Assembly (NCBI RefSeq): GCF_001949145.1 | Contig: NW_019091357.1 | Location: forward strand, 1,853,704 to 1,917,703 | DNA from: Acanthaster planci | Taxonomy: Eukaryota | DNA length: 64,000 nt | Direction: 5' to 3' | Shown here: piece after piece, positions 1 to 54,638 of the stretch | How positions within the stretch are numbered: the first letter of the stretch is position 1 | How the letters are laid out: each line of letters starts with the position of its first letter | Translations under genes and position numbers: made by a program | Notes under the pieces: generated by a model | The model's input: the letters and a program-made list of their open reading frames with translations, nothing else | Databases searched by the model: none | Told to the model about the DNA's origin: nothing

Positions 1-615
1 AATGACATGTATCAGGTCATGCGTGTTTTCACAATAGAAGCTGGTCTGCGAAAACCCAATGTCAGAACCAGTTCAGGGAGCTACAAAGCACCGACATTTT
101 GCTAAAACATAGAAAATGTCAACCTAACAGAAAGAGTATTCCATCCCATTAATTCAGGTGATGCCGGTTAATATACTATTGACTGGTTTATACGAGGTCA
201 TTTTTTTTCTCAGCGCATTTATTTCTGAAGCCATTATTTGAGCAGCGCAGTACAAAGTTATATTCACTAGGTGGCTATCTTAAATCCTGTTCCCCGAATT
301 CACAAGACTAATCGAGCACTCTGAAGCGGGGAGGTGCCCAACTTTTTTTTTTCTGAAACTATAGGGTTTGTCTCACTTTGAACAATATTTTCATATCAGC
401 CCAAAAGTGGCATGTCTATCCAAAATGTGGAACTACACTGAGGGAGCACGATGATATATTGCTCCCACACCCCTAAATTTTTGAAACAATTTTTACTGGG
501 GCTGCCTATTTCAATTCAAGATGGGCGACGGGTGCATAAAGTCAAGTAAGCCCTGGTCATGTTCTGCTCAAGATCCAAAAGTAAGTCGGTTATGTTGAAC
601 TTCTTTGTTGTGCAG

Positions 616-3470
<2,855 letters not shown>

Positions 3471-4298: not shown

Positions 4299-4699
4299 AT
4301 GGGGCGTCAGTTTTCTGGAAGCGAGACTTTACTGAGTTTGACCAGTTGATCACTCCTTTAACATCGTTACATTTAAGCAGGGACACGGAGACATTTCCAA
4401 CTGGGGTTTTCGTGGTACGCCCTTTTTGTTAGTGCGTGACACTAGCGACAGCACTGCTGGGGACGATACGTAAGCCTACACTGGAGGATATTGTGCACGT
4501 GATCTGAATCGGTTAACCTCTGCTTTCCCATAGCGGTGCATGCTAAATCATGGCGCTGTAAATTGTGAAAGATAGTGTACATGTGCAAATAATGTCTTTA
4601 ATACAAGGAGTTTGGACTTTTGAGGGCAGCACCCGTCCGGCTTTTTTTCTTATCTTCATGCTGTCGAAAGATTGATGAAATTGAGTAGGCCTACGTGAC

Positions 4700-5391
4700 A
4701 GTTTGTCCTACGCTGAGCAACGCGTCTCTGAACCAAACGCACGCGGGTTGATTCGTTTCCTAGTACACTGGTAAGTACAATGCTTGCTGGTGGGGTCTAT
4801 GAGAGTTTTTGTACCGCTTATGACCGTATAATTATTGTAGCGAGGGGATTTCATTGTTTTAAAAAAGATTGCTGTGATTGTTTTGTTGTAGTTTAATGGG
4901 AAAAGTTGTCAAGTGAATGAAATGGAAATATCACGCCACTTCGACAACTTTTCGGTTATGTCAGCGGCAGATCGAACTCTAACTTATTCACATTCCGTAT
5001 GTGGGCTTTATTTCTTGTGAAATTCGACATCTTAAAAGAAGCCTAAGTTCAGTGTTGCCACCAAGATCCGTAATACAGGCCACCAAGTATATTAGGGACA
5101 AAGAACATCCTGATTCAATCAGCATTTCAGATTAAAAGCCTTGCATCACTTTCCTTTCATTTAATTGTCAAGTTCCGGTCCACCTTCGCGGTGCTTCTTC
5201 GATCTTCCTTTCGTCAACCTTTTATCGTAGTTTTCCTTGTTCACCTGCCAATTATTTGATTTTGCGTGTGTATGTGTTTCACATGTCAGTTGTTTTTGAA
5301 ATTTATTCTGTGGTTCCGAAATGTACGTTTATAGAGCACTGAAGCAAAGCTTATCAATTCTAACCATTTTTTTTATTGCTCGATATTGTAG
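4700..5391 (+). other. Putative non-coding first exon (ending 4770) and 5'-UTR intron (4771-5391) of the UGM-like gene
   Basis: Strong donor CTG|GTAAGT at 4770/4771, and acceptor TTTTTTTATTGCTCGATATTGTAG| at 5391, just upstream of ATG 5426. The start of this exon is a guess. Confidence 0.4.
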
Positions 5392-5425
5392 GCTGGACAC
5401 GACGACTGTTCCATGCACCATAGGA

Positions 5426-8400
5426 ATGGCGAGTCAATGCAACTTTGTCAGCAGCTCACTGGCAGTCTTTGCCCTCGTTTGTCTTCTCCTGTCTCGCTTC
5501 AACCAACCTCTGGAAGCCAAACTGGCCAAACCCGACCACGCAGTGCTAGATCGGGCGCCAGTACCGGATCCTGATCTCGGGGATGCCACAAAATCCCCCC
5601 TGGCCGGGGAGACATCTTTTGGCGGCAGCGACCAAGGTGAGGAGAGAATAGAAGAAACTGACGGCATGTCAAGGGTAGACTGGTATAAACGGCCGAAAGA
5701 CAACCGACTTGGGGATTCAGGAGACGTCGAAGACCACTGTGGTAAGCAGATCAGAAAAATTTTTTTCGGTTGCGTTTTTGGCAAGGATGGGATCAATGTG
5801 GGGCTGAAATGACGCCCATCGAGTTATCGTTAACGTCCAATACTCAGGCCTCTTGAAGATTTTGAACCATCGGAGGCCAAAAAAAAACCAGTTTAAAACT
5901 TGATCACACATACCGGTGATCACACATACCGGTAGATAAACTAAACTTAGCATTGTTCAGAATAGTGACGATCGATGGTTTGCGGTTTCTATATGCTTTT
6001 GACTTTGGATAGCAAGGCAACCATGTAACCTTTCCTCCTTTTTTGAAAAAAGTGCAGCTGTTCTTGATTTAACTTGGTCTGATTTCCCCTTTCATGTCAT
6101 CTAGCCATTCCCGACATTTTGTCCCAATGACATTGTTCAAGTGCTTCGAGATAATTTAAAATTGTACACACTGAAGTTCAGAGTTTCATTCGTAATTCAA
6201 AAGAAACTGTAGTAAAAACGGTCCTCGAACAAGATCAGTAGCCATCCGGTTGAAACAAAAATTGGGTGTTGAATTTCAATGTTGAATCAATTTTGAAGGT
6301 GTTAAATTTATTTTCTATAATTTGGCACTTTCGACTGCTTTGGTGTGAACTTGAACGCATTTCCATGTTGCTGTGTTAATTCTTAATTAAGGCATAACCA
6401 CGCAAAAGAGGAAATGCTGGTTTTTCAGTCTTCAGTTTGTAGAATTTCTCTTTATCGTTTTCTTTCCTCTCAGAAATCTACCCTGATCGATGCCATCACA
6501 AGGATAACAGACACCGAATCGTCATCATCGGCTCCGGTCCTACCGGTCTGGGAGCAGCCCAGAGACTCTACGATCTCAAACAGGAAGACAATAACACCGT
6601 GGTCACCATCTTAGAGGAGCAAGATAAGCCAGGAGGCCTGGCCTCGTCTGAAAGGGACGATCAGGGATTTCTCTGGGACATCGGAGTCCACGTCGTCTTC
6701 TCCCACTACACCTACTTCGATCGAGTCCTGAATCTGGCCGTGCCCGAGTGGAACTACCGTCGCCGGGCGTCTTTTGCCTTCATGATGGGATCGGATGGGA
6801 TCAGACGCTTCATACCCTACCCCGTTCAGAACAACATCCACACCATGGACAAAGTGGATCAGCAGCGAAGCCTGTCGGGTCTGGAAGAGATCGCCAGGTT
6901 CCCGGCCGGCCGGAAACCCAAGAACTTCGACGAGTGGCTGCTGCAGAAATTCGGGGCGGGCCTCGTTGATGTCTTCATGAGGAAGTACAACCGGAAGATT
7001 TGGACAGTGGACACCACAGAGATGAACTCAGCCTGGGTCGGCGAGCGGGTTGCTGTGCCAGACATTGACGAAATCAAGACCAAGATTGCGGAGGTGGACA
7101 GTGGGGCAAACGCTAAGGATTCCGAGTGGGGACCCAATCGCTTCTTCCGTTACCCGAAATCCAACGGCACGGGTGGTATGTGGGAATCAGTTGCTAGACG
7201 CCTCCCGAGGCGATGGTTCAATTTTCACTCCAAGGTCACCGGCATTGACATTGACCGGAAAGAGATCGCTGTTGAGGTGGGCAAAGATATCAAGAGTCGC
7301 CACACTATGAAATACGATAAACTAATATCCACGGTCCCTCTAGATAGTTTTGTCGGTTTTGTTAAGAGCAGCGATGCGTTACTCAGTGACCTGCAGGGAC
7401 TGGCGTCCCAGCTCATCAACACCCACACTCACATTGTGGGCGTGGGTCTGCTCGGTCAGCTACCCCCAACCCTCGCCGATAAATCCTGGGTTTATTTCCC
7501 GGACTCCGATTCTCCGTTTTACCGCCTAACGATGTTCTCCAATTATTCCGACGACCACGTGCCAGACCCGGCCGCTCACTGGTCGCTCATGTGCGAAATA
7601 GCCGAGCCGGAAATGAGCTCCGATCCAGCGTATTGGAACAGAGACAATTTAGTCAACGAGTCAATACGAGCCTTAGTCTTGTACGGCTTTATAACTGCTG
7701 ATATGGTGATCTCCAAACACTACCGTCGAGTAGAACACGGATATCCTGTTCCTTCTTTAAGTAGAGACATGATCCTTGACAAAGTCCAACCTTGGCTACG
7801 GTCCAAAGACATCTACTCCCGCGGCCGGTTCGGAGGTTGGAGGTACGAGGTTGCGAATCAAGATCATTCCTTCATGCAAGGGGTCGAGGCCGTGGACAAC
7901 CTTGTCCACGGCGTTCCGGAGTTAACGTATCCGGACCCGAATTTGGCCAACTCCAAGAAGAACACGGATCGAATTATCCCGCTGGACTTGGAGGTCGTTG
8001 TAGCCGCTGAACGAGACGAGAGCCTGGAGTGGCTGAAGCCGTTTGCTGAACACACCCTGGTGTACCACTTAGGAACTGACTTGGGACCGTCGCTCCAATT
8101 CTACGCCTGGCAGCGCCTTGAAAGTGTCCATGTCAGAGCACAGGTATTTCTGCACCACATCTGTGTGAATTACAACCAACTGGCAGACCTGACGATCTTC
8201 ACGCAGGGAGACGAGGAGACGAGCAGGTGTCTTCGTTGCCTGAGGAACCCGCGTCAGTTGCCCTCTGCTCCGATTCGGGTCGATCCATGTGAGTGGAGAG
8301 ACTGTTACGGCGACAGCTTGGAAGCTGGTGGCGATCATCAGTTCCCGCGATGTTCCCAGGACAACCCGGCGAGCATGGCCAAAATTGTGCCCGTCTTGAA

Positions 8401-8596
8401 TCAGAATTGTTGGGGATCTGCGATGCCGCTGACGCGACACTGCTGGAACGAGTGCTTCGGAGCAACTAAGGAAATGATTCAGAAACATCCGCTGGATCGT
8501 TATTACCAAGCCTTTAATGATCTGGGTAGAATTTCCGATGAAGATGAAGATAAGGGTGACTTTCTACAGACATTGTGGATTAGAATTTTTACCTAA
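5426..8596 (+). CDS. glf: Eukaryotic-type UDP-galactopyranose mutase (FAD-dependent) with N-terminal signal sequence and C-terminal DUF3431-like domain, ~812 aa
   Basis: Exons 5426-5741 (phase 1 donor G|GTAAG) and 6474-8596. The spliced product restores the Rossmann motif RIVIIGSGPTGLGAA upstream of ORF 6599. Motifs collinear with fungal/trypanosomatid/nematode UGM: PGGLASS..GFLWDIGVHVVFSHY.YFD, PYPVQNN, FMRKYNRKIW, WVGERVAVP, WGPNRFFRYP..GTGGMW, DKSWVYFPDSDSPFYRLTMFSNYS, HGYPVPS, SRGRFGGWRYEVANQDHSFMQGVEAVD, ELTYPDP. Confidence 0.88.
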
Positions 8597-8737
8597 TTTC
8601 CTGAGGTATATTTCACGCACCCACGAAAGATGCTACTTCTAATTCACGAGGATCAACACCTGTATGTTTTAAAATATAGTAGCTCTACCAATCAAGTAAT
8701 TCTTCAGCTTCTAGATCGAGTAAACAGTCAGCTCATT

Positions 8738-8808
8738 GACTGCGTTCTACGCTCTATTCTTTCGTTTAGACGGTGGCTGCGTTCTACGCTCTGTTCTTTC
8801 GTTTAGAC
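8738..8808. repeat. Two-copy tandem repeat (~38 bp unit) in the UGM 3' region
   Basis: CTGCGTTCTACGCTCT(A/G)TTCTTTCGTTTAGAC occurs twice in tandem. Confidence 0.7.
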
Positions 8809-10002
8809 TGTTATCGAATGAATGAGATGATAGAAATATGAATTTATTTGTAAACGGATTTAAACATTTTATGATTTGTGCCAATTGTTATCAATATCAA
8901 GGAAAATAATTCTCGAATTGGTATAAGGCGTTAGGAAGTTGTCTGTGTTAACAGTTTTCCTGCACTTTTGAAATATCAACTATGGTCATAACTACCGTGC
9001 ATTTTAGTATTATCCGTGTACTGTCTTTAATTACGAGTGCGTTCGTTTATTTTATTTTGTTAATTTTTAAATCGTCTTTTTTGCGCCGATGGCCGCCCAT
9101 AAAACCTGAGGCCAAGCATAGACATGGAGGAGAAACCCCAGGTCTATGGGCCAAGATTGCATGCACCGGACTAAAACAGGCGCCCATAGAAAAGAGCGCC
9201 AAATCAGTGAGAAACAGCGCCGCCTAGTGACGCTCAGGGACAGCTTGGTCTTGTGTGTTTCACTGCAAAGTCAAGATTATTATGACACCTCGGCCCAAAA
9301 TGCTTTTCATCATTACCAGTGTTCAATTTTTTAATTCTCCCCTCCCGCAAAATCCCCCCCCCCCAAAAAAAAAGTAGTCAAACTCCAGGTCTGAATTTAG
9401 CCACTCGCCTTTCTGCAAAAGTCCACAAAATGCAGGTTTTTGAGAGTAAAATATCCCAAGTTAGAAGCCACAAGTCCCAAATGTTTGTTCACGTCGGTCC
9501 CGTTGGATCTCAAAATATTAATGAGCTCGCGCGCAGGAATCTACCGAGTGGAATGCACCCCTTAGACAAAGGAGTCCAAAGTAAGGCGGTTTTTTAAGGG
9601 AGAAAACTTGAGAGGAAAGCCTTACACCAAGCCCAATTTATACATTTTACTCTCTACTTTTACTACTCGTATTTTGAACTCCTAACTTTTCCCCTCGCTT
9701 TACTCTTTGGTTTCTGAATGCCATCACGCCACGGGATAAGACTCACCACATCAGCGATCAAAATAAAGACTTCCGTGGACTCAATTGCTTGATTCGCAGC
9801 AATGGCTAATGTAGGGCGTCAGACAGCTCTGACGAGGATTACGATCCAGGTTCAAATGTTATTACACAAAAGACTCGCAAAGTATCTTCTTTCGTCGGGT
9901 AAAGAGGACATTTTACTAAAATTTCCGTTCCATCGGAAATGACAAGGAAACCCCATTATTTTTCGTCTGTTTTGCATATAGAATATTCCCTTAAGCAATG
10001 CA

Positions 10003-10176
10003 AATACGGGCGTCACAGAATACAAACCATGAGTTTGAAATGCGTCGCCCAATCACAACGCGCGAAATTTGTCCACCCTTTTCAAACGCGCATTGGGTCG
10101 ACAGATTGTGCGCATTGTGATAGGCCAACACAATGCAAACTCTTGGTAGCGCACTATATTATGAATTGCCCGTATT
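10003..10176. mobile_element. Palindromic MITE family A, degenerate copy
   Basis: AATACGGGCG...CAAACTCTTGGTAGCGCACTAT...GAATTGCCCGTATT, homologous to 14390-14565. Confidence 0.7.
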
Positions 10177-10656: not shown

Positions 10657-13600
10657 TTAATCTCTTTTGGGGCGACGTCCCCCACGTCTCCGACTGCAAC
10701 ACGTGTACCAGAGTAACACGTTTGCGCCACAAATGACAGCGAAAACCAGCAGCAAGATCAGATAAACATCGATGAGGTTACGCTGGACGAAGTTCAGGTC
10801 AAACACGGCCGGGCGGAGGTGGTTCCCGCCGAACTTGGTCACGTGAAGGATCCAGTTCGCGATGGTCTCCGCTGGAGGGTTCATTCTCACCAGATCTCGA
10901 AGAATCGCGGAGTAATGCTGTGCGTTCTTGCGGTACCTGAGAGTCAAAAAGGAAGCAAGACAGAATGGATCCCAATAGACCTCTGTACCGATGACACCGC
11001 ACGTTATTTCATGTGTGCTTACCTATCAGTGGACCCTGCACCCTACTGGCTCCACAGGAATGCGCATGACATGTAAACACGGCGTGACATCATCAGTACA
11101 TGGGTATGTTGTCACGCGTTCCTGAGCTTGGATTTTATTTCTGAGCTTCACTTTTCCCTACGAGATGTTTGAAGTGTGTTTTGCGAGTATACTTAATTTG
11201 GGTCTGTTCTGTTCTGCCATTGGTGGCTGTAATTGCAATTTTTTGATGGAGGAAGTTCATGTGAGTTTGGAATATGGGCGATTCACAATAGTGCGTCACC
11301 AAGAGTTTGCAACGCGTTGGCCAATAGTAAAGTGCGAAATCTGTCGACCCTTTCCTAACACGCGTTGGGTCGACGGATTTCGTGCATTGTGATTGGTTAA
11401 CGTGTCGCAAACTCTAGGAAAAGCCCGTACTGTTTAAATGTGGCTGCACAGGCGTCGCTAAACTCTTGTAAACGGGGGAGTCATCTTGAAATTTTCCGAC
11501 GGACATGGTAGACTGATTCCCATCTGATTCCCTGACCTAACATTTAAGAAACCCCCTTCCTTCCTCTTTCGTTCTTTACTCTTTCCTAACCAACCATGAC
11601 TATGCCGACAAAACTGGCCCGGGGGTGTGGCACCCCTACCCTCATCCCCGTATAGCGACACCTGTTTCCGTGACTGAAACTGAACCTGGGGACAACTTAC
11701 TTTGGATTATTAACTACCTCCACGACGGCGTCCCGTAACCTGTCCGATGTCACGCTGGTAATGTCGCCGAGAGAGAGGGCGAAACCTCGGGCCACGGCGC
11801 GGTCGTTGTTGTCAAACATGTCATGTAGAAGCGGTATGCTGACGATCGGGAGTCCGGCCCATAACGCTTCCTGCACGCTGTTGATCCCACACTGAGTCAC
11901 AAACGCTTTGGCGTTCTTGTGTGCTGTACACAAAATGGAAGAAAAACCAAATGTCAACGAGAGATTTCCAAAGGAGCTCAATTTCTTCCAAATGTTTTTT
12001 CTCTGTTTATTGATGTGAATCCTGTTTGTTTCCTTTTTGCCTTTTAAGTTGCCTCATGTGGAGGACATGAGCCGTTCGTCTTGTCTTGAGCCGTTCTTTT
12101 TGTCATATACATGTTTTACGCAGCACTGAAATTTCTTGATTCTCCTTGCATTTGAATGCTTAATCCGAAGCCTTTGCCTGCATTTGAGTTGTTTTCTTGG
12201 CAACCAGCGTCAGTTTCTTCAAGCTATTGTCTTTTTATTCTCTGTCTTTTTTCCATATACGTCTACGGCCTTGTTAGGTTAAGCAGATCGCCTCTTTGGG
12301 ACACATCTCTTGAGTACCATTGGGATTCTAGCAGTTGATTTCAGATTTGGTGACACTCGACTTTTACGGGTCTCTTCACTTTACTTATTTTATTTCAGTT
12401 CAACTTACACAAGAGCTGCAAGAGGGGGATCCAGTTGACCATTTTGGTGTTCTCGCCGAGGTTGAGACCGGTGAAGTTGATGTTGGATTGCCAGAGGACC
12501 TTCTGGGGCAGCAGAGCGAAGCCGTCGGCAAACATTTGCGCCTGTTCGACCTCCATCGCCTCGACATGGGAACCGAGGGAAAATATGACGAATCCGGCCA
12601 GAGCTTCGTCAACGAACTTGGCAACATCATCCCGGAGCTGGAAGTAAGAAAAAATAACAGAAACACTCATGTTTGGACGTGCCTTCAAGAACCCGACCAT
12701 GACAGTAGTTGTTGCAAGGGAGCATATCATTGGCAAATATAAGGCCTATAGAAATAGCTTCTCCTGGCATAGTCGTCGCATTACAATTTTAAAAAGGTGC
12801 CTGAAGTTTTCTTTGTTTTCATTTTGCATATTGATCTCTGCTTTTGCACTTGTCTGGTTATGCTTTTTAAAAGCTAACGTAAGTGCACCTTAAACTATAA
12901 GGGACATCTTTATCTAGGCATGACGTCACACTTGAGGTTTAGGATTGCTGGTTACCTTCTGCCAATATTATTGATACGTTAGGGAACCAGCCCCACTTTT
13001 TATCGGAAAGGTGAAATTAAAGTTTTCGATCTTTTTCTTGACCAGTGAGGGCACAATTGCTTTCATGCCATTGAAGAAAGACACTCTATATTTTTCTCGT
13101 TAAAAATGTGAACGTTACATCTTGTTTTGCACTGAAAATATTTAAGAGAAGAACAATTAATCATTCAAGAAAAGGATTAGAGGATTAGATATTCCATCCC
13201 AGGGTTTACTGAAATCTTATAACTGAGCAGTTGCTGCACGGGGGTTTCCTGCGAATGGTATATCCCACTGTTGCCCATGAGTACCTCGATTTGCATGAAC
13301 ACAAAAGCCCCAAACAGAAATAATACATTACATGCGCCCTGTATATGCCACTTCCTTTTCTACTTTCTTACCGTGTAGTTCTCTCTCTTCCCGCCAATTA
13401 GAGAGGCATACATGAGCGTATTCGGCTGCATCGGTCGGGGAAATTCTAACGGATAGTTCATGTTGAACACCCACAGCCGAGCTTTCATGAGGGACTCGGT
13501 GATGTGAACTTCTGGTTTAATGTTGTACTTCACTTTAAGCTGCTGGTACCGCGTGGGGAAATCGGAAAATATGTATTCACTTGTCCAGTGGAAAATGTAG

Positions 13601-15305
13601 TTAATTACCCGCTGCGACAGCGTCATTCGGTCGGTGAATCCGAGTTGATGGGCCGGAATGTAAGACGGATCGGTTGGGACCCGGAACCTGCGAGAGAAAG
13701 AGATGGGGGCAGTGTTGCTCTTCCCTTACGGGGCTTCAATGGAGGCAAAATGCATGGCGTAATTTTTAGAGCATCTAGTGGATAGCGTTTGTTTTGAATT
13801 ATAACACGGGTCAACAGTTCCACGTGCGCGCTAAATGTACATGCGTGGAGTATAGGATGGCAAGTAACCCACAGTGCCTTGCGCATCAGTTGCTGTGACG
13901 TTTAATAAGGCATTTCACCTTTCCCAGCCCATGAGCCCTGGGGACGAGTGAAAGGGATAGCAAAAATCTAGTAGTCTTAGCACAAAACGTTCTCATCGTT
14001 TGAGCTCTTACACAGCGATTCCAATAGTCTGGCTCTTGGACCTGTGGGAAGTATGAAACCATCAGCATTGCCCCCCCCCCAAAAAAAATTGACAATTTCC
14101 AAACTATTTCGAGGACTTAAAAGGCATTAGTACACTAAAAACTGGGCCTTTCTGACAAGGAAGTGGAAAAAGGCCCAGCTTTCCTATTTCCCAAGATTTC
14201 CCTTGAATGTGCTTGTAGACATTTTGTACAAACACTGACTACTTTTGTGTTGGCAGCCGGTTTCCAGAACTCGCATTTTGCTTCATCAGCCGTAAAGAGG
14301 GGGACATTTTCGTTTACCAGTCACTAGAGGTGTTATTTATTTCTGTGGATTTTTCTTAATGTTTGCTCGAGATTTTGTCGCACTTTGCGAATACGGGCGT
14401 TTCACAATAGTGCGCCACCAAGAGTTTGCAACGCGTTGGCCAATCGCAATGCACGAAATCTGTCGACCCAATGCGCGTTTGGAAAGGGTCGACAGATTTC
14501 ACGCGTTGTGATTGGCCAATGCGTTGCAAACTCTTGGTGGCGCACTATTGTGAATCGCCCGTATTTCCACAGCTGGCCATATATAGTTTTGTCACTGAAA
14601 AAGGAGTTCGCTTGAGGCGCAGCAAAGGAGATGTGCATTTGGTGCTTGGCAGAAGAGTGCAATATCTAGAAGCAACAAATACCAGTGAAATACTCACAAG
14701 GGCCCGTACTTGTCCGGCATGGCACACCAGTTAGCTAACTGCACGAAAGGGATGTCCAGTGCCTCTGCCACGATCGCGTTGCAAAGTGAGAAGTCATCCG
14801 CGACCATCATGTCAAACTGCTCACGACGGAGTCTCGCCATAGTCTTCTCATCCCTCAACAAGGCGTCACACTCGTCAATAAGCAGATAGATCACTAACGG
14901 TTTACCGGTCCGGAGGGTTCGCAAGATCAAGCGGGCTATCCCCGCCGCAGAACTCAGCTCTCCCGAGAGGGAGTAGTGAGACAGTTCCCGGAACACGTCG
15001 CGCCGGCCCTCCGTCGTGTAGTTAGACTGGAAGAAGATGAAGGAAAAGAGATCGTTGTCGTTTGTCTTGGGCGCCCGCGGCCCGTCGCTGCCGACCAGGA
15101 AGAACACGTCGTGCCCCTGACGCGCCAAGACCTTTCCCGACTGGCTGAGCTGCATGCCGTGACTTCCAAGTTTCTCGAAGGAGTAGTACAAAAACTTGTA
15201 TTTTTTGAAGTCTTGCTTAGTCTCCTCGCAGCCTGTCGGAAGCGGTGCTGCTGAAAAGCACATCAACATCAGGAGGAGAGTCCAGGCTGAGAGTGCGGAA
15301 TTCAT
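10657..15305 (-). CDS. UDP-glycosyltransferase (GT1, animal UGT / UDP-glucuronosyltransferase-like), type I ER membrane protein
   Basis: Exons 15305-14698, 13687-13372, 12637-12409, 11923-11701, 10936-10657 (TAA), phases 2/0/1/2 consistent. Signal peptide MNSALSAWTLLLMLMCFSAA, LGSH (catalytic His), LARQGHDVFF, FDMMVADDF, VPTDPSYIP, MTLSQRVIN, LEFPRPMQPN, GFVIFSLGS, UGT signature, C-terminal TM helix and basic tail RRGGRRPKRD. Confidence 0.92.
11271..11429. mobile_element. Palindromic MITE family A copy in the last UGT intron
   Basis: AATATGGGCGATTCACAATAGTGCGTCACCAAGAGTTTGCAACGCGTTGGCCAAT...GCCCGTA; the right arm is partly deleted. Confidence 0.75.
14390..14565. mobile_element. Palindromic MITE family A, best-preserved copy (~176 bp, ~80 bp arms)
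   Basis: Left arm AATACGGGCGTTTCACAATAGTGCGCCACCAAGAGTTTGCAACGCGTTGGCCAATC... is almost the exact reverse complement of the right arm ...GATTGGCCAATGCGTTGCAAACTCTTGGTGGCGCACTATTGTGAATCGCCCGTATT. TA sits at both ends. Confidence 0.85.
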
Positions 15306-15894
15306 GGTGGCCTTCGTTAGCAACACAATCTGCAAATGGCGCAAATGACAGAAACAGTGAGACTGTAATGTTTCCAAGATTCCATCCCGCAATGCAGAAG
15401 TTGGCATTGACACTACATACATTCAAGGGCGGATCAAGGAGGCCATCGAGGGCCATGCCCGCTCCAAGAAGCCAACTTTATTTTCTTATATACATAATGA
15501 GAGGGGGGTCATTTGTGGTCTATTTCTTTTCCCTCCAAAAAGACCTTTTGCTTTTGCCTTTTTTCCGGGGGGGGGCGTGCCATGCATGTTTCAAACAAGG
15601 GAATTTACACATTAAAAAACTCACCCAAAATTCGAGACCCTAATGCAGAACAACAAGGTGTCGAGCGACGCAGAAGTGCTGTCAGATCAGTTCAGATATC
15701 GTAGCCCGTCTGAACACTTCTACCTTTACGCTTGACCTTTCGTTTATTTATAGACGGCAGAATTGAAGTTCATTCTCTGAACATTACCTGTATCAAAGTC
15801 TCTGTTAGAGACAGCGAATGCTGAAGTGTAGGCTGAAATAATTAATACCAGGAATGTCATGGCACAAGTGCCTGGCAGAATGGCGTTTGGACAG

Positions 15895-17945: not shown

Positions 17946-20900
17946 TTAAGCCGCAAAGTACGCCGAGCCGAACACGTCATCTCCCTTGTAGTCGTAGGTC
18001 TGGATATTGGCGCTGCTTCCGTTGAGCTTGAGCTTGCACAAGGCGTTGGGCGACTTCAGGAAGCAGGTGGAGAACATGGCCACTTCGAACTCGGGGCTGC
18101 CGCCGATCATGATGGAGGTGATTGGCTTGACTCGATTAGACCACTTGAACTGGAACTTGACAATGCCATTCTGCCGAAGGAGAAAAAAATCTTCACTCGT
18201 CACAGGATAGTCGCACGCGGATGACCTCACAAGAACAAGGTAGTCAGACTACTATTTTTACTATTCATACACACTGCTGGATAGCAAGGTTACTGAACAG
18301 CTAGTCTTGTACCAAGACGGAAGGAACTTTATAGCGGACTCGATCGAGCATATGCCGCGTGCACCGATTTCTATTGCGCCCTCTACCAAGACGGTAGAAC
18401 GAGCCGTCGACTGGTGAAATGAAGTCACAAGAGGGCGCAATAAAAATCGGCGCGCGCAGCACGTGCTCGATTGAGTCCGCTCTCGACTTCTGCCGTCTTG
18501 GCTGAAGACTACTGACCAGCAAGACTGCAGTTTTCCTAAATTGACAGTGTGGCCCCAAACTCATGATTATTAGGTATGCAGGTAGACCACATGTCGGAAA
18601 TCCGGTCAGCGGGTTCGACGGCTCGAAATAGGAAGGACCAACTCAGTATAATTAGAGACTACTAGGCGACCGAGAATAGAGGAGGGGTGGAATGAATTGA
18701 TTCGTTCTGCTATGATCAGAAACTATGTGTTACGATCCCAGTTGATCCAAATTCTTTGATCATGTGTGTCTCCCCGAAAAGGTATTTTTGGAATTCACGC
18801 ACGCTTTTAAATCCTATAGAAGACTCCGCAGTCATTATTTTGTTTCGTTCACAGTGAGTGACTTTTAATATGCCTTAACATGTGCGTTACAAAATAGCCA
18901 GTGTTGGGTCAGCACCTCCGCGCCGTCTTCTACCGGTCTGCTCCTCTTCATCGCCTGACGGTGGCCGAGGCTGTCACCGCGCGCTGTGGGACCGTGGACC
19001 CCGGAGTGGCTCCATGCAGAAGCCGAATCTCGGGGTTCCCTTACCGACCTACCTGTCTGAGCTGGGCTGTTCTGGCGCCAGTCGTGGCGGTGCTTGGCCC
19101 GACGACTGTGCTCCTTTAGCCGTGGCACTGACTGGGCGTGGCCTTATCTTTCTCGTCTTTGTTTTGGGCTCTTTAAGGTAATTATGCTCGGCCAAATTGA
19201 TTTGCCTCTTAGTCCATTAACATGTCTTTGCCGGCTTGTTAATATTCTTTGTATAATGGTGCTGTACTCATGTAAATATGTTTACTTTTATGCTTTTTCT
19301 TGTCCAAAACTCACGGTGTTTTTGCATGAGAAGTTTAAGTTGCAAAAAACACTAGATTTACTTAGTTTTAAGTTATTGCTTTGCTGGTTTAAGTTTTTAA
19401 TTAAATGTTGTTTCAAATTAGTTCCTTGCCATCCTTTACCCATATTTTAATGTCCGTATTCCCGTCTTTTAATTTTCTTCTGCCGTGCGTTCTCCGTGCA
19501 TGTATGCTCCACGAGGTTTAATGGATCGGGTTTTCTATTATCGTCTGTCAGTTATCTTAAATTATCTGCCTTAAAGTCACCAGCCGCTGTAATTCAAATT
19601 TGCAACATAAACAGAGCCATCTTTTGGGATTAGAATTAAGCAGTTTTTATTTCTAGTTTTCAATCCCTCGGTTTTATACGAAGTCCCCTAGCTATTTGAG
19701 AATTTTAAAAGTCTGTTCATGCTTAATTGGTGGCAACGCAACCATAACGTGTACATTTCATAGTCGTTTGTGAACCAGCAAATTGCAGTTCCTAGAAATG
19801 CACCAAAGGATCCTCTGTTGCAAGGAAAATTGCGCCCTCTCTTGATACAGCCCTGGGTTCATATTGTGGTTCAAATCTACTCATATAAATAGGCTCGGTG
19901 GCGGAAATGTTGAACTTAAACAAAAACCGCTCGTGATTATCAGTAGCTTACTTGGATTTCTACTGACATTGGAACTTGAGTTTTGACCAGTGGTCGAGTC
20001 ATGGCTCACCTGTATTTTATTTAAGTACCCATGATAGTTGGCGAGGCCATTTTTTTCCAGCAGGTACAGGCGCACCCAGTTGTGGAACCCGGACACCGAC
20101 GTACTGCTGGACCATTCGCCGACAAAGACGTGCTCGAAGCCTGAGGTATCACTGGTGGCTTTGCGGGTGTAGGGCTTGAAGAGGAGTCCTCGAACGAAAT
20201 CTTTGTACTGGCTTAGACTTCCAGAGAAATAGTCTAGTCATTGTTTTGAAAAAGAAAAGAAAATGTCAACGCGTGTGTTCAGTGTTCGGCTACTCTGTGA
20301 TATAGTCCTCGGGAATTGAAATTCTCAGCACGATTAAGCGCGGGAATTTATTAAAGTGTAGCTGCATTGAATTTTTCTTCGACACAATTTTTCTGCATCT
20401 TTGTACTTTTCTTCCATGTATGAAAACGCTCATTCACTGCTTTTTGGTTGAATGCATAGAAAAGTGCACACTTTTAGAGGGTAGTTGAAATCGATGTTTT
20501 TTATTACAAACATGTAAAATGTACCTTGGTGCTTCAGTAAACCTTACTTGCAACTTTGGTTTCACTGTTTCAAATGGTATTTTAACGCCTTTTTTGTTTC
20601 AACGCTAACGAGAATTTCCATTTTTGTGAGCAAAATTGTGATGTCATCTTAGGAAGAAGCCTCAATAATTTTCCATTGGTTCGTACACAAAAAAGTCCGG
20701 CGTTTTTGGAGATTTTCCTGGACTAAGGTTTCTCTTCTTTGCTGATTCATTGTTGTTGATGTGCACAGCAATAAGAAACCATCAATCCCTCTCTCAGAAA
20801 TGTTTTCAGTTGCTAAATTCTGGGGTCACAGATAACTGTAACCTGGTGAATTAAGATGGAAGTATAAGATCTATAATTTCATACTGCAATGCTTGGACAA

Positions 20901-23900
20901 ATCTGTTTAGGAATGATGTCACTACAACACGACAGTTCTTCCTCATTCGCTGTAAAAATCATTATTTTTTTTCACTTTTAGTCAGAAAGGCTGACAACAT
21001 TTTCAAGGTTGGCCCAAAGAAATCGAGAAATGGCGATTTGTGACCCTTGAGAGAGCTTACTTTTCGCCGTCACGAACTTGTACGCCTGTGTCATAACCGC
21101 GGTTTTAAAGATGGCGTCCATGAAGGCGTCTTCTTCAGCCTGCTCAGCGGACGACCGGCTCTCAGTCGTGCCCTGACTGGTGACGTAGTTATCGAAGAGG
21201 TTGATGAGAGCCTTGAAGGTGGGTCTGGTCAGGATCGCCGGGTCGATGGAAGTGAAGAGTCTGGGGCGGAGATGGAGGGGATTCAAGCCGTTAACGGAGG
21301 GGTCCGTACTCGAAGTGGAGATGAGAGTAGTGTGAAACTTGACTGGTCCCTCTAACAATCTCGGGGCGGAGAAGGCAAAGAACCAGACCTTGCCTATTCA
21401 TGTAACATGTAAAGGTTTGTATGGTGGGTATGCACAGTCGAGTTGCTTGCGGTAACATCATATGTAGCATATGAACTCTCTCTTTTGTATGTGTGACTCC
21501 CGAATACCACCCGCCATTTGCTTATTCATGTTTAATATACGCGTTTTTGGTCGCCCAGTTGCTCTTAGGGTACGTCCATTTACCCACGTGATCGGACGTT
21601 CGGACACCTGCCGTTAAGGATAGATCGCAGTGCCGCGCGCAGCATTTTAGGTAGGCCTATCTACAGACAAACTCTCAAAGCTTTGATGAATGACAAAATT
21701 ATGTTGCACAAGAAAAAACGAGCAGCCAGCACCTGGGCTGGATCGGCACGACAACGACTGTATCACATGCAAACACGACACATATGATTTGATAAAAACT
21801 GCATAGTTACGTTGTTGGAGTGAAACTTAGCTGCAAAGCTCGACCAGCTATCGCTTTGACAACTCAAACCTATACTGTAATGGCAGTCGATCTCGGGGAA
21901 AGCGTATTGTCACGTGATACTTTGACATCTATTGATCAGACCCTATCAGGAACCATTAGCGTGCCGAGAGAAGTCCCCCCTCCCCATATCGACAGCCCTG
22001 TTTCCCGTTCCCTTGCTCAAGGGGAACTTCAGCAACAAATGTTGAGGTCGAGTGCGACAACAGTTCATTTCTCCCTCCCCAAGGGTCGTTACCTATTTCC
22101 CCAAGTCTTCATGTCAGGTGCAGCTCACCTGTTAGGTGACACGTCCGTCGTAGAGGATGAGCTACTGATATAATTGCCATAGTTGATCGTTATATCTGTG
22201 CCCACGGTGGCCCGACTGGTGTCAGCCTTCCATATAGCCGTGGCAAACGCCGAGATGTCAGCAGGCACGCCTGGGGCTAAATCACCGAGTAGCATAGCCT
22301 GTTACTAACTCTGACAAGAGCAGCAGAGCAAACACATCAAAGAACCCAGGGGCAAATGAGCAAGACTTTGAGGATGGAAGTAAATTGATTACAACTGGAA
22401 TGAAGAATCAAGGTAAGAAGAACCGTGGCAAACAAAAGTGGGGCCAGAGGGAAAAAACAGTGTTATCAATACAATACGGAAATACAAACATCTTTTTTGA
22501 AATTCATGGAGACGATTATAGCAATTACAAAAATTGATGTCCCAAAACAAAACCACCATTCCCACATAAGCTTGTTTTCGTACATGGTCGTATATTACAA
22601 GTGGTAAAATCCATATTTTTCCATTGATCGTTAAGAACTAAAAACTGCTCGAATCTTTGGTTTTGTTCTGCGCAAAAGTGCTTGAATTAACATAATTTGT
22701 TCAGTGGTTTCCAAAAAGGCATATGGATTTAAAATAATACACATATTTTGCAAAGCTTCGTTATGGCGACATAGCGACCTCAACGGACGTTTAGCAGGCG
22801 CTTATCCATATCTTGGATCCAAAGGAGCAAAAGAGATTTTTTTTTCCAAAAAATGACGACCGTCTAGATGTCGTTACCCATGAAGAATCTTCATTGCACC
22901 CCCTCCCCAGCGAAAGGTTGGCAAGAAGTCCCAAGGGTGAGCAACTTGCACCACCTCTTGCTCTCCCCCCCCCCTATCCTCCGCTGGATACGCCTCTAGA
23001 GTGAAGTCTGCAGCAGTCCATTTACCAAAAGCGAACTTCTAAAACGGTGATTACCGGTGCCACCACCTGTGCATAGACTGTCGTAGTCCGAGCAGCAGTT
23101 GCCATAGTTGGGGCAGAGGTCGTTGCATTGGCAGGGTAAGGTTTTGTCATAAGACGCACCGCATTTGCCGGCGCAGGAATCTATACAGGGTGTAAGCAGA
23201 ATATTAACTTACATAGCCAGCCGGGAGGGGGAGGGAGGAACTTGTCCCCTCCCCCTTCGGGGGAGGATTTCTAGTTGGGCGTTGAAAGTGCCGACACTTG
23301 AGAAGCGGTTCTAACGCCTCGGTGAGGAGATAATTCGGATATAATTGGACATTCGGTAAAAAAATCGCCCCCGCCGTTCTCAAGGCCTATTTAATACGTC
23401 ACTGACAAAACCACTGATACCCTCCGGTGGACACAGACAGGTTCATTAGGTTCACTGATAAGAATTTTTTTCAAACTAAAATGGAAGTCGATTTCGAATC
23501 GTTATGATTGGAGAGTAACAAATTTGGTCTCGAGGATCAACATTGTCCGAGTTAAGATTTTGTAGGGTAATCCTTCAATAGCATAACGATTCACTGAATA
23601 TAGCGCCACCAAGAGTAATTGCGGGGGTATTTTTTTCTTTTTTCAATGTGTTATGTGTAAAAAGTCGAAATCCGCTATTAATTATAATTATGGTTGTATT
23701 TGAATTTCACGAAAATTAATTAGCATTTTGGACGAACATCGAGGAAGCAGACAATCCGAAAAACTGTAGCACATATTTGAAGCGTTGAGTTGCCAGTGAC
23801 CCAGTGCTACATTAGCAGAATTGTAACGAGTCACTAATTGTTTGTGACTCGCATCGAGTCATTATAGTTTTTAAAAAGTCGAGGCTAGTCGAGTCAAATA

Positions 23901-24931
23901 TATAGCTCTATCAAGTCATCAATATTGAACACAAAACGATTAATGAAAATAAGAAAGTCATTTTTTAGCATTTTAAATTTACGTCAAAGTTTCTACATGT
24001 TATCATACGGCATCTTGCTCTTGATGATAGCACATAGCATGAACATTTTTAACCAGCACTACAAGTCATTCCAAATATATTTTCGCAAAGGAAGTTATTT
24101 TTATATTTGGGACTCGAGTCTAATCAACTCGAACTCGGGTCGTGCCTTCTTATGCAGAACTCGAGTCGAGTCATTTACCCGTCAGGAGTCGAGTAGAATT
24201 GCCAAACATTGTGTTGAGTTGACCTGAGTCGATGACTCGACTCAGGTCAGTGCAACTCTGCACATCAGTGAAGGAATCAGGATTCACGTATTCAAGTTAC
24301 GCATAAAGAAACGGTGTAGTAGAAGTTTCTCTCAATCAAAGTGGGAAGCGGCTGCATGTAAATCATGAGGAAAAAAGAGAGGAAAAAAGAACCATCAGCT
24401 CCCCAAAAAAGGAGCAGAAAAACCTATTTTCCGTACCTGCCACGCAGTACACATCGTAGTCGCTGCAACAGTCGCCATAATTGCTGCAGGCGTCATTGCA
24501 CTGGCAGGTGTGGCTGCTGCTATAGCCATCGCCACATCGTCCGAGACAAGATGAGGCTGCGTCTGCGTCTAGAGAGGAAGTACAAAATCTTAAGGACAAA
24601 AGAGAATTAGTTTCTTATCCGTAAATATTGAATTATATATCGTTAATCAGCCCCACATACCGCGCTATGTATATTCAAACCAAACACGTTTATCAACAAA
24701 CAAAACGCTCAAACGCAGTACTACATTTATCGTTATGATTTTCTCGTTTGTCCTTTTTTGATGGAAAGTCGCAACCTTTGCGAATTTTCCTTGAGTTCCA
24801 CCGATGGCACCCTCACCGTGTTGGAACTTCCCAGCGGCGTAGCACATCAGTATCACAAACACGATTAGGCTGACAACTACTGCAGACGCGACAGCAAGCT
24901 TAGTTCGCGAGGAGCACGTCGGAAAGGCCAT
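17946..24931 (-). CDS. ENDOU: Poly(U)-specific endoribonuclease (EndoU/XendoU family) with N-terminal hydrophobic segment and two somatomedin-B domains
   Basis: Exons 24931-24817, 24568-24437 (SMB1: CLGRC...CQCNDACSNYGDCCSDY), 23180-23055 (SMB2: CAGKC...CQCNDLCPNYGNCCSDY), 22276-22129 (alternative acceptor 22270), 21260-21061, 20233-20010, 18170-17946 (TAA); phases consistent. Catalytic motifs SGFEHVFVGE, GFHNW, WSNRVKP, IGGSPEFE, GSAY. Confidence 0.9.
19812..19865. repeat. Short dispersed repeat family E copy 1
   Basis: CCTCTGTTGCAAGGAAAATTGCGCCCTCTCTTG matches 48075-48131 (CCTCTGTTGCTAGAAAAATTGCGCCCTCTCTTG). Confidence 0.6.
20560..20808. repeat. Dispersed repeat family C copy 2 (ENDOU intron)
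   Basis: Collinear with 16259-16505. Confidence 0.7.
23816..24260. mobile_element. hAT-like non-autonomous DNA transposon
   Basis: Short TIRs CAGAATTG...CAACTCTG, many subterminal GACTCG/CGAGTC motifs at both ends with an AT-rich middle, and flanking 8-mers TACATTAG / CACATCAG (6/8 identical, a likely decayed 8-bp TSD). Confidence 0.65.
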
Positions 24932-28700: not shown

Positions 28701-31700
28701 ATGGATGACGAACAAGTGAAAGACACGGGCAAGGAATCACCACTACGCATCCAAAACAATGATCTGGACGAGACACTGCCACCCTGTAAGGAGTGTGAGA
28801 GGCATTTCTTCTCCAGAACCAACACATTCAATGTGTTTGATGGGGCGGTTGTCCTGATATCGATGGTCACGTTTGCTGCCGACATTGTGACGGGTACGGT
28901 ACTCGTACGTACATTAACATGACGTAGGCCACAGGCCAGCACTGTTTTCGTTATTTTCATTGCACTGTTACCTTTACCTTGAGACCGGAGGCGAAATCAA
29001 CTACACGTTCTCTATGCTAAGTTATAGCATTAGCAGTAGACATGGTAGATAGTTGACAGAGAACTTGATGTCTGTATTATTTTTTGCTCTTTTATCGGAA
29101 CGGCACGGGGGGGGTGGGAACGGGGAGCACAGATGCGCAAACATGGTGGTCATGATCAGATGATAGTCCATTTCTGATTCGTCCATGGAGGTTTTTATTC
29201 CTTCAAGGATAACTGATATGACAAGCAGAAGTGTAACAAATAGAATTATTAGAAGTATTTCCCTGGTTCTCTGCTTGAATTATTTTGGCTGTCGTATTCA
29301 CCTGTTCACGAGATGGGATTCATTTGTTTGTAACTGAAACAATTTAGACTTGTTAGGCCTACAACTTAAATGGGCCTACATGAAATACAATATACAAGAT
29401 TACGTGACTTCCCTCAAAAATATATTTTAAGTACGTACCGTACTGATGTAGATGCAGAATGGCTACTGGAAAGGCCTCAAACATGTCAAAGGCTGTAGGG
29501 GGAGCCTGTGAGTTTTTTAAGTAGCTGTACATGTGTATTCTCTCTATCAGAGATCCAGGAACCTCAAGTATTTCTGCATCATGTCGAAAAGCATGACAGG
29601 GGATTTTTCATACGCTAAATAAAGGCCTTAATGATGTCATGTCAAACGCAATAATGTATAGAGCAAGGAAACAGCTTGCTTCATCAGTGTCTGTCTTTTG
29701 GTTAGGATGGTGACAGAAGTGTTACAAGACTTCCAAATTTAGTTGACGACATTGTACAATAAATGGGCATTTATGGTGCCAGATTCTGCAACGGCACTAG
29801 GCCTTTTTATATGTGGTGAGTTCAATACGCACACTGCCCAGCAAGCATGTCAACCTGGATGTGACCCCCCCCCAACACACACACACTTAGCAGTTCCATG
29901 TATTTTCATTTTCCTAGGTGTTTTATTTTTCCATAGACACTGATCAGCTGATACATGTACATTGTACAAGTTTGTCTTTACTTCCAGTGGTAGCCCAAAT
30001 TCCTCCCTAACCGCTCCAAGCGGAACAAGAGAGGCGTGTTTTTTTGGGTACTCACCGCAAGGACGCGCCATGAGGCGTGCAAGTATATATGTGTGTTCGA
30101 CACGGAGCACACTGAGCACGTGTAACTAATTTACTCCGGCATGTAGAGTCTTTGCATACATGCAGAATGCTTGCAAGGACCCGCTTGTAACCACCTGTCT
30201 TTCTTTTCAACGATTGGGGGCGCACTTCAGCTCGGGGCGGATACCCCACAAGGACTTTTCAAGGCAAATAAAGCCCAAGTTACACGCTAGTCTGGCTCCT
30301 GTTTCAAATGCTGCAGATTGCTGTGGTACCATGCAGAAGTGCACAGCATCCAGTCTAACATCCTGGAACTGTAGCCACGACATTAAAAACAAAATCTTCC
30401 AGGGCCATGAACCAGTTGTTTATACAGCTAATCAATCATGAAATAGACAAAGCTGAAGCCAAACTTTCAACCAAAAAGCAAACTGAATGAATTTTTTTTC
30501 AGATGGCCTGGCAGCAAGTCAATATTTTGTCTACGGGGAACCAGGCTGGGGTTGCCTGACTCTCAGTTTTACCCTGGTTCCCTCCATCATCATACAGTTG
30601 TTCAGTGCACGCTGGTACTTAGCTGATGAAGACATGACTGGTTGGAGATGGGTCTTCCATTGCTGCCTCCTTGGACCCATAGAGAGGTACATGTATCAAT
30701 GTGTACATTTTGCACACCAGCCTCCACCCTCAATCTGGGATTTGTCCTTTTTTACAAATCTCAGACTTGTTTTAATCTTGGCTGCCTCTCAAACTCTGCC
30801 ATCAATCAATCTAAAATGTTTTAAACGTGAAATCAGAAAAACTGTCCTCCACGGTCACGTCAGACAGTCCAGCAAGTTTTTACGATCCACTCGAATAGTG
30901 TTCAGTGATTCATATATACGGTTCCACGCAATGGCTTCAAAATGTTTGTCTTTAAATCGTAGCTCAGAGCTAGCCTGTGGTGGACTTTTCTTTATTTGTT
31001 TGTTTGTTTGGTTTTTTTTTCTTTCAATAGATATCTCACTGTCTTTGAGACTGGACTGGAAGCCCGACGGAGCAGGGATCCACTTGACTTTGAGCGTTTA
31101 CATCACCAGCAGAGTGATGTGAGCATGCTTCGTTTGTTTGAGTCATTTTTGGAGTCGGCTCCCCAAGTTGTCTTGCAGCTCTACATCATGGTCGCGACCA
31201 ACGATGAAAACCTCTTCACAGGTGATAAATTATGGGGTTCTTTTCCAAAATTTCCCTTTACTGTACATCTAGTAAATTTTTTTTACCACATTTCATCAGA
31301 CCATTTCATCAGACCAAAACTTGTTTTCCCTATTTTTTCCATACAGGTATAGCCTGTATAGTGTCACTGATATCTCTCTGCTGGGCCATGGTTGCCTACA
31401 ATCGTGCACATCGCCGCGTAAGAGCGGACAAGAACAGCGTGTCAATAGCTGGCGCTGCCCTCCAGACTATCTGGCGCATCGGAATGATCTCGTCGCGCGT
31501 TGTTGCCCTGGTGCTGTTTGCCTCTGCCTTCCGAGCTTACACGTTTTTGGTAGTAGGTAAGTTTAAAATGTGTTATCTTTGATCACTTTCACCCATATGA
31601 AATGCAAGCTTTAATACCTGACTGAAAAGACAAGGATTAAAGCACCATCTGCAAAAGTGTTACCCCTGACCAACAGGCTTGTACATGTAGTCAGTTTTTT

Positions 31701-52800: not shown

Positions 52801-54032
52801 ACGGTGTCCCCCCCCCGACCCCGGCTCAGAAATCTGTTAAGACTCGGTCTTGGTTAGCGTTTTGACTGTGACCAAACCCACTGAGTGCCACCTTCCAGAA
52901 AATGAGGGCTACCAAGTACCCCTCGCAAAATGTACCCCAGTTTGGCCACTGCCCCCTTCCCCTGTTTAAAAGGCAAAACTCGCGTTATTTCAATCTAGTC
53001 AACTTTGGGGGCAGATATAGCATTTTTGAGTATGTACCGCGATTCCTAAAAAAAAAAGATAAAACTGAAAATGCTACGCCTTTACCATAACATCGATCCC
53101 GACTGTTGTGCAGCAGGGGGCGTGCTAACCGTAGTTGGGATCAGCCTGATCAGTCAGGACATATGCTGCTGCTTGGACGGGAAAAAAGAAGGGTTATAGG
53201 ATACAGATTGGAGCATGGAACCATCTTCAAGATATTAATGTTTAGAGAAATTGTTCGGCTGTGAACTATGCAGAAGAGATTCATTGTGTTTACATTGGCA
53301 GATTTTTTTTGTCCCTGAGTTTCTCAGTCTGTAACCGAGTATACGACGGTAACCACTCTGGGTATGTACGCTATTGCCAACATGGATGGTAGCCTAAAAA
53401 TCTTTACACGTATACCATTCTTTAAAAACATTAACAAATCACTTCTAAACTCACTTTTTTCCTTTATTTATTGGTTAATTAATTTTCCAAGCGCCTCAAA
53501 GTGCAGTGAAATGAGTAATTAATCCACGCGAGCCCTGTTTCCTGAAATAAAAAGACATAAACTGTACGATCATTTTAAGGTCGACCGTGCACTTGGCTAA
53601 GCCCGAGGGGGTATGCTTACGCCGTCCCTGGAAGTATTGTATTGCATCGCACGTGCAGCTGCACTGTGCAAGCTCACCCTCCATGTGTTGAGCTCTCTCG
53701 ACCTCCCCTCTTTGAAAAATGCAGTGACCCTATCCTTTAGCCCCTCCTGATTGGTCAACGGGTTGCTTTTACCGTGTCTTTCTGGTAGTTAAAACAATGC
53801 GAATGATCATGGGGAGTTAGTCGTTAACGTGGCGATATTTTCGACTCTTGCCTGGTTAGTTTCGACACCGTCATTTTGCCGGAAACGCTGCTTTTGTGTG
53901 GCAACGTCGGAATCGTAAGATTTATAACACCGATGGTCGGTCAGTTTGAGTTGATCCGCAAGCAATTAAGAGATCAGAATTAAGAAAAAAATACGTCCGT
54001 TTTACCATCTTTGCAAACGATTTTGACTCGAA

Positions 54033-54638
54033 ATGACGAAGCAGCCCGAATTATCTCTGGACGCTGATCAAATGGATGCCACAGTACTGACCCTGCTTGG
54101 GGAACAGAATGACACCGGCCATGACAACACCGAGCAATCCAAGCCCAAGAAGCGAGGACGAAAACGCAAAGAGCCCGCTGACACCCAGACAGAAGCGGAC
54201 CCCAAACCCGCCAAACGCGGCCGGGGCAGACCCAGCAACGCTTCGGCGGCCGCTGCATCGGCCGCGGCCGCGTCGGCCGCCCGGGCCGCGGCCAATTCTT
54301 CCCCGTCCTCCTCGTCCGGGTCCGAAGTCTGCAACGCCGCCCGCGAGCGTTCGCGTGTCAAGACGCTCCGTGACGCCTTCCTGGATCTTCAGAGGTCCCT
54401 GCCCTCTGTCCCTCCGGACACCAAGCTGTCCAAGCTCGATGTCCTGGTCTTGGCGACGACCTACATCGCTCACCTCATGAAGACCTTGGACGGGGATGCC
54501 GATGTGCCGGAGTTTGGCTCTTTATTAAGATCGGGGCGAGAGGCGAGAGGCAGCGGAAGCAAAGACGGGGGAGACACTGGGGCAAACTTGGACCACAAGC
54601 ACCGACTCAAAGCCGACGGATACCTCCACCCTGTCAAG
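54033..54638 (+). CDS. TCF24: bHLH transcription factor of the TCF24/TCF23 group, first coding exon (the rest was not found in the window)
   Basis: [52 protein letters not shown] and DGYLHPVK are characteristic of TCF24/23. There is a donor AAG|GTCAGA at 54638/54639, where the family normally continues KWPMRSRLY. Confidence 0.88.

Follow-up and report, generated by a model that had tools for sequence, protein, structure and literature searches.

A spliced UDP-galactopyranose mutase gene of the sea star Acanthaster planci with a signal-like leader and a predicted luminal product

In reviews, the mutases that make furanose donors belong to microbes, fungi, protozoa and nematodes and work in the cytosol, and their product has to be carried into the Golgi. 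The known eukaryotic UDP-galactopyranose mutases (UGMs) are described as cytosolic and dependent on a Golgi UDP-Galf transporter (available excerpts of PMC7278926 and PMC5589893). A locus of the sea star Acanthaster planci raises the question of whether a mutase of this kind could work on the other side of the membrane. The preliminary description of a 64,000-nt stretch of genomic DNA (the window; contig NW_019091357.1, positions 1,853,704 to 1,917,703) had assigned a UGM with a signal peptide or anchor and an acidic stem to the secretory pathway. We found that splicing gives a single open frame of 812 aa, in which a signal-like segment, an 82-aa stem, a eukaryotic-type UGM and a C-terminal DUF3431 domain follow one another (Table 1). 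The locus is an expressed gene for a new form of a known kind of enzyme, whose location and activity are predicted from its sequence.

The N-terminus proposed earlier matches the translation of 5426-5743 and is joined in frame to the FAD domain across a phase-1 intron. RNA reads had been named as the check on this junction, and they bear it out: the joint 5741/6474 between exon 1 and the mutase exon was read 36 times in four of six raw-read runs of the same species label (unstranded libraries), with 18 reads (14 starts) in X8, 13 in X10, 4 in X11 and 1 in X15. The two runs without such reads, X9 and X12, had little or no depth on the mutase gene. In X8, the depth of exon 1 equals that of exon 2. 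Transcripts lacking exon 1 or starting downstream of it had been put forward as the case against the leader; exon 1 was read joined, and the four joints listed for X8 and X11 reads, at low depth, include none that skips it. The joint 4770/5392, which adds an upstream non-coding exon, was supported by 8 X8 reads and one X1 contig.

Table 1. Features of the mutase gene and its two neighbors, in positions of the window.
Feature	Position	Strand	Basis
GalE-like UDP-glucose 4-epimerase, 3' exons, upstream	614..3470	+	Pfam Epimerase on two of five exon frames scanned; six spliced RNA joints
Upstream non-coding exon	4675..4770	+	Joint 4770/5392 GT..AG; in-frame stops before ATG 5426; 5' end unfixed (one RNA contig begins at 4675)
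Exon 1: 34 nt of 5' UTR, ATG 5426, signal-like segment, most of the stem	5392..5741	+	RNA depth, both joints, translation
Predicted signal peptide or signal anchor, aa 1-31	5426..5518	+	Hydropathy; FNxPLxA-K kept in Patiria miniata orthologue P0003
Stem, aa 32-105, running on to about aa 113 in exon 2	5519..5741	+	Charge and composition of the translation
Phase-1 GT-AG intron, 732 nt	5742..6473	+	RNA joint; donor GT at 5742, acceptor AG at 6472-6473; inner intron bins without RNA depth
Eukaryotic-type UDP-galactopyranose mutase domain	6512..7975	+	FAD motif 6530-6547; histidine loop GVH within 6680-6694; E 3.8e-118 to 3UTE
DUF3431 domain, predicted GT-A fold, decayed motifs	7976..8596	+	PF11913 E 4.3e-06; stop 8594-8596; without KDEL-type tail
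UDPGT-family UDP-glycosyltransferase, downstream, convergent	10657..15422	-	Five exon frames match Pfam UDPGT; hydrophobic segment and basic tail at the C-terminus

ATG 5426 is the first in-frame start after an in-frame stop and is in strong context (gga ATG g). The two strands of the 64-kb window have 2208 ATGs together; 55 of them open 105 codons, and ATG 5426 alone among these 55 has an 11-residue hydropathy mean of at least 3.0 within its first 35 residues. Leader alleles seen in RNA carry one silent change and the replacements Cys19Gly and Leu21Ile. A 53-codon out-of-frame ORF (5413-5574) begins at a weak-context ATG 13 nt upstream of the main start and overlaps it; it could dampen translation of the mutase. 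In-frame Met81 could serve as the start of a leaderless form. Reads of two RNA runs jump over 37 nt of the 3' UTR where a short tandem duplication lies (8756-8794); the jump lacks splice ends and is likely an allele. A tblastn search with four relatives found no second mutase copy in the 64-kb window.

The leader is built around the core LAVFALVCLLL (aa 12-22; 5459-5491), whose hydropathy of 3.3 over 11 residues is the maximum of the protein, and 118 residues, this core included, precede the FAD strand. It ends with Pro28 at -4 and Ala31 at -1, within the FNxPLxA-K pattern shared with the Patiria orthologue. By general rules, a short core, a helix breaker and a small residue at -1 would fit a cleavable signal peptide, and the leader is likely cleaved after Ala31. 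The hydrophobic, signal-like start of the preliminary description is upheld; of the two forms that it allowed, a cleavable signal peptide seems to suit the segment better than an anchor does. The stem covers aa 32-113, a length of 82 aa against about 75 aa as first described. It is acidic, as had been claimed, with a net charge of -9, and enriched in Pro, Asp and Gly (34% versus 20% in the rest of the protein). We rejected the accompanying claim of low complexity, as 82-aa windows taken from the catalytic part span values (minimum 3.83, mean 4.06) that include its entropy of 3.96 bits. An acidic stem as a family trait was also rejected: the stems of 28 other hydrophobic-start relatives range from -4 to +5, and a charge of -9 occurs in this copy alone.

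Once cleaved, the protein could stay in the lumen in soluble form, and because its C-terminus has no KDEL-type tail, it could also be secreted. Outside the cell it would meet neither UDP-sugar nor NADPH, and a secreted copy would act as a sugar-binding or otherwise repurposed protein. The 11-residue core and the residues at -4 and -1, alike in the Patiria orthologue, are compatible with this, as are the missing tail, the decayed DUF3431 domain and the altered histidine loop. However, 12 of 13 substrate contacts are kept and the mutase sits on a short branch (FastTree, 0.12 changes per column), as in a working enzyme, and most paralogues look anchored. The three supplements of a spine secretion study (PMC10448888) held no match for Acanthaster gene ids or 'mutase', a weak blank as other ids may be used there. 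We consider secretion of a repurposed protein unlikely.

We then asked how widely the leader occurs. The exon-2 product has its best named matches in Patiria miniata (LOC119727075, 74% identity), Acanthaster planci and Asterias amurensis, followed by corals and a sea cucumber; databases call the sea-star relatives 'uncharacterized' or 'amine oxidase domain'. The survey covered 121 sequences (the window protein and 120 matches), and a start was scored as hydrophobic if it held a 13-residue segment with a hydropathy of at least 2.0. At least 30 residues precede the FAD motif in 39 of the 121, and 29 of these 39 are hydrophobic there. All 17 scorable named sea-star proteins have a hydrophobic start, as do two further ones without a matched motif. 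N-termini were short in 52 sequences and the FAD motif was unmatched in 30; many of these are probably gene calls that start at exon 2. The other 10 long N-termini scored below 2.0, with P0069, P0070, P0071 and P0088 clearly polar, and some relatives with polar starts may be cytosolic. In the tree, P0069, P0071 and P0088, with their long polar N-termini, form a well-supported subclade of the fusion family. Among corals, the proteins of Oculina, Acropora digitifera and Montipora foliosa show an N-terminal hydrophobic segment accompanied by basic residues.

The charges that flank the hydrophobic segment bear on its orientation. In 26 of 29 hand-picked hydrophobic-start proteins, and in 17 of 19 from named sea stars, the N-side is more positive than the C-side, and in the chosen sequences this points to a luminal catalytic side. 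The Acanthaster protein has no basic residue N-terminal to the core and a flanking charge difference of 0, so its own sequence leaves its orientation undecided. A reversed, P450-like anchor, which such neutral flanks would permit, would hold the mutase at the ER or Golgi membrane, facing the cytosol, draw on cytosolic NADPH and pass UDP-furanose to a transporter. This arrangement would solve the problem of flavin reduction, and plant arabinopyranose mutases do work from the Golgi's cytosolic side (PMC6861824, text available in part). It is at odds with the opposite charge bias in 26 of the 29 relatives, with fusion partners that are glycosyltransferase-type domains and with a modest sequon excess. 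A core of 11 residues is also short for a reverse anchor, and we regard this topology as quite unlikely.

Hydrophobic starts also occur further afield. Among 150 distant representatives, 109 have fewer than 25 residues before the motif, the motif is unmatched in 22 and the start is longer in 19; in 7 it is hydrophobic. Named proteins among these 7 and P0226 come from protists: Carpediemonas (anchor, UGM, DUF707, UGM), Mataza, Petalomonas and Ploeotia (anchor, epimerase, UGM). A Strigomonas row that also has a hydrophobic start may reflect a wrong start call. Scans of 35 long representatives found DUF3431 in 13 (one also with GT90) and an epimerase in 4. P0226, P0199, P0235 and P0292, which include proteins of the euglenids Ploeotia and Euglena longa, are NAD-dependent epimerase/dehydratase-UGM fusions, two of them with an N-terminal hydrophobic segment. 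P0196 (975 aa) joins UGM, GT90 and DUF3431 in one chain and is leaderless as called. In the P0186 cluster, several UGM models from Aspergillus and Penicillium, each about 530 aa long, carry about 22 extra basic N-terminal residues before the start of the solved protein, which represent either an upstream start or a targeting sequence.

Sequons are found at 1.38 times expectation in 91 close matches and 1.11 times in 81 short stand-alone relatives, a weak difference among related sequences. NGT before the GTGG motif is present in 52 of 121 versus 0 of 76, which is weak for the same reason. The NGT at aa 336 is common to 22 of 30 aligned relatives, and the NES at aa 500 to 3 of 30. We dropped an NYS sequon as a luminal marker, as it also occurs in the cytosolic A. 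fumigatus enzyme. A FastTree tree of 76 chosen rows has a weak backbone that cannot tell a single from a repeated origin of the leaders, nor identify a donor. An Atlas search with full-length P0003 returned bacterial clusters only, at 0.85-0.86, below the lead threshold.

Because the start is spliced and signal-like, and most sea-star and several coral and protist relatives are alike in this, these enzymes likely act in the ER or Golgi and not in the cytosol. The secretory placement made in the preliminary description gains strong support by comparison, from the spliced exon, the family-wide hydrophobic start, the type II charge bias and the fusions to predicted GT-A, GT90, DUF707 and epimerase domains, while location itself is still read from sequence. 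For the family as a whole, we hold entry into the secretory pathway to be highly probable.

Whether the Acanthaster copy could be active was assessed from its mutase domain. It aligns with Aspergillus fumigatus UGM (3UTE) over 494 residues and with PDB 4DSG, which we take to be the Trypanosoma cruzi UGM, at E 1.9e-114. Its GxGxxG FAD motif reads GSGPTG (aa 125-130). Substrate contacts from Table 3 of PMC3624792, a source available in part, were mapped by hand on the 3UTE alignment: of Y104, F158, F106, Q107, R182, Y317, R327, Y419, Y453, N207, N457, N163 and W167, 12 of 13 are identical, with F106 replaced by Val. His63, Thr18, Arg447, Gln458 and Ser461 are also identical to A. fumigatus. The six residues that we take to form the NADPH site (F66, H68, R91, S93, Y104 and R447) are all kept. 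Two of them, R447 and Y104, also appear in the contact data in the available part of PMC3624792. Whole-domain homology, the FAD motif, His63, the substrate contacts and Arg447 thus link the protein to the known eukaryotic UGMs, whereas the leader, the stem and the fused DUF3431 domain are additions to them.

A further difference from these enzymes lies in the histidine loop, which reads GVH instead of GGH (G61-G62-H63). GVH is shared with 6 other sea-star proteins, and GGH is found in 93 of 109 matched relatives. In the accessible text of PMC3624792, the two glycines of this loop are said to occur in eukaryotic UGMs alone and are linked with redox switching, and Table 3 there includes active bacterial UGMs in which Ala or Pro takes the place of Gly62. 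GVH may alter flavin reduction or protection, but because of these bacterial enzymes it need not kill activity. GVH, GFH and GLH are marks of a 12-sequence sea-star clade (support 99) that includes copies with further active-site losses. Such company, together with the GVH loop and a DUF3431 domain among the least conserved of 106 rows, would suit a luminal but catalytically weak or dead paralogue that acts as a scaffold or regulator of active paralogues in an expanded sea-star family. The retention of the substrate contacts and of His63, Arg447, Thr18 and Ser461, along with the tolerance of bacterial enzymes for Ala or Pro, argues against a dead enzyme, and we rate this alternative the least probable of those considered. 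An active luminal mutase is the reading that we favor for the Acanthaster copy, with fair but not high confidence.

Residues 607-812, which the preliminary description had passed over, match DUF3431 (PF11913) at 27.1 bits, against a cut-off of 25 and over profile positions 1-70 of 219 only; DUF3431 was found in most close relatives. In the Acanthaster copy, the motif LPNVGRExHTY reads LESVHVRAQVF and EExHYxERLW reads GDFLQTLW. Conserved positions kept number 40 of 68 here and 38 of 68 in the Patiria orthologue, compared with a median of 62 over 106 rows, and the domain is likely inactive in both copies. Two structures were modeled (mean pLDDT 80), of the window's domain and of P0152, an intact coral-cluster fragment. 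For both models, GT-A or nucleotidyltransferase folds make up the best 50 structure matches throughout (best Z 9.4 and 8.8), and Foldseek gave best E-values of 1.7e-3 and 1.3e-3, none at or below 1e-3. We predict a GT-A fold for DUF3431, and this glycosyltransferase-type fold, if the models hold, would be a first functional lead for the domain.

The first structure match of the window's domain was to residues 7-247 of Klebsiella WbbM (PDB 6U4B; Z 9.4, rmsd 3.7, 182 aligned). The GT111 domain of WbbM is a UDP-Galf transferase (PMC12269835), and the DUF3431 model shares its GT-A fold at 8% identity. Assignment to GT111 was dropped: unrelated GT-A enzymes tie with this match to within 1 Z, and the best 50 for the coral domain do not include WbbM. 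Searched by itself, the window's DUF3431 domain matched none of 37 candidates (113-361 aa) at E 0.001, and the Atlas look-alikes of an intact domain were mostly viral DUF3431 clusters. Among the literature matches listed, papers on DUF3431 deal with Aspergillus gene lists.

The mutase gene lies between an epimerase gene, named GalE by us on the strength of its motifs, and a UDP-glycosyltransferase (UGT) gene. Run X10 covers the exons of both the mutase and the UGT, which have almost no depth in X9, X12 and X15; GalE is covered in three of these four runs. GalE (614-3470), the mutase (4675-8900, +) and the UGT possibly form a small glycoside-synthesis cluster, for which these data offer a hint only. 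A palindromic dispersed repeat at 14383-14572, 11270-11429 and 10026-10157, with 87-nt arms that are 90% complementary, resembles a miniature inverted-repeat element and is abundant in RNA reads from other loci. Elsewhere in the window are EndoU ribonuclease exons with two somatomedin B domains (17946-24614, -), an XK-related gene (30487-31122, +) and a bHLH gene (54027-54662, +).

In the mechanism that we propose, the chain would enter the ER, where anchored paralogues would stay as type II proteins and the Acanthaster copy would likely be cleaved. The luminal mutase would make UDP-furanose donors out of imported UDP-pyranose sugars, close to the transferases that consume them. Its reduced flavin would bring about the ring contraction of UDP-D-Galp, or of the homomorphs UDP-L-Arap and UDP-D-Fucp, to the furanose, and would be re-reduced by luminal NADPH, of which ER hexose-6-phosphate dehydrogenase may be a source. 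UGMs turn over arabinose, inefficiently (PMC6861824), and the mutase equilibrium favors the pyranose 11:1 (PMC7278926; both in the portions available). Because of this equilibrium, an adjacent transferase would pull the reaction along, and the fusion likely serves this end. The ancestral member of the family may have been a mutase-transferase fusion, with the donor made and spent in one chain. Since its transferase-like domain has lost the family motifs, the Acanthaster copy is likely a mutase only, and it would supply paralogues or other transferases.

Luminal enzymes that interconvert nucleotide sugars are known from the Golgi, animal UXS1 among them. The plant Golgi UDP-xylose 4-epimerase MUR4 is alike in having an N-terminal anchor and a stem and in being a cofactor-dependent luminal UDP-sugar enzyme (PMC6861824, in part). 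Enzymes of the MUR4/UXS1 type work with bound NAD+ and no outside reductant, whereas the flavin of UGM needs re-reduction about every 1000 turnovers (available text of PMC3624792). Plant UDP-arabinopyranose mutases (GT75/RGP) are similar in providing a UDP-furanose donor for Golgi transferases, but they have an unrelated fold, are cytosolic without a signal peptide and need UAfT transporters (PMC6861824, same portion).

Among the literature matches listed, with subscription papers and bioRxiv supplements outside the scope of the search, we found no description of a leader-bearing, luminal, echinoderm or coral UGM. The gene is present in Oculina and Desmophyllum, which we presume to be robust-clade corals. 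Coral-mucus arabinose was dropped as a product, since arabinose is given as absent from robust-clade corals in the text available of PMC11189453. Starfish gangliosides carry beta-Galf, beta-Fucf and alpha-L-Araf in terminal or internal positions, and the transferases are only postulated in the available part of PMC8228791. Asterosaponins can hold L-Araf, by enzymes called unknown in PMC7760246 (excerpt).

Tentatively, and as a reading that is less likely than not, sea stars, corals and several protists might share a family, so far undescribed, of luminal mutase-transferase fusions in which the flavin domain makes UDP-furanose in the Golgi and DUF3431, as a new furanosyltransferase family, uses it up. 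The expanded set of sea-star paralogues would then explain the furanoses (Galf, Araf and Fucf) in starfish gangliosides and steroid glycosides, and the Acanthaster gene, between GalE and a UDP-glycosyltransferase, would be a mutase-only offshoot. The family provides named candidate enzymes for the furanoses of starfish gangliosides and for asterosaponin sugars. If the luminal reading is true, a UDP-Galf transporter would not be needed, and the leader-bearing mutases of sea stars, corals and free-living protists would constitute a second, luminal route to furanose donors, raising the question of how reducing power is supplied in the lumen.
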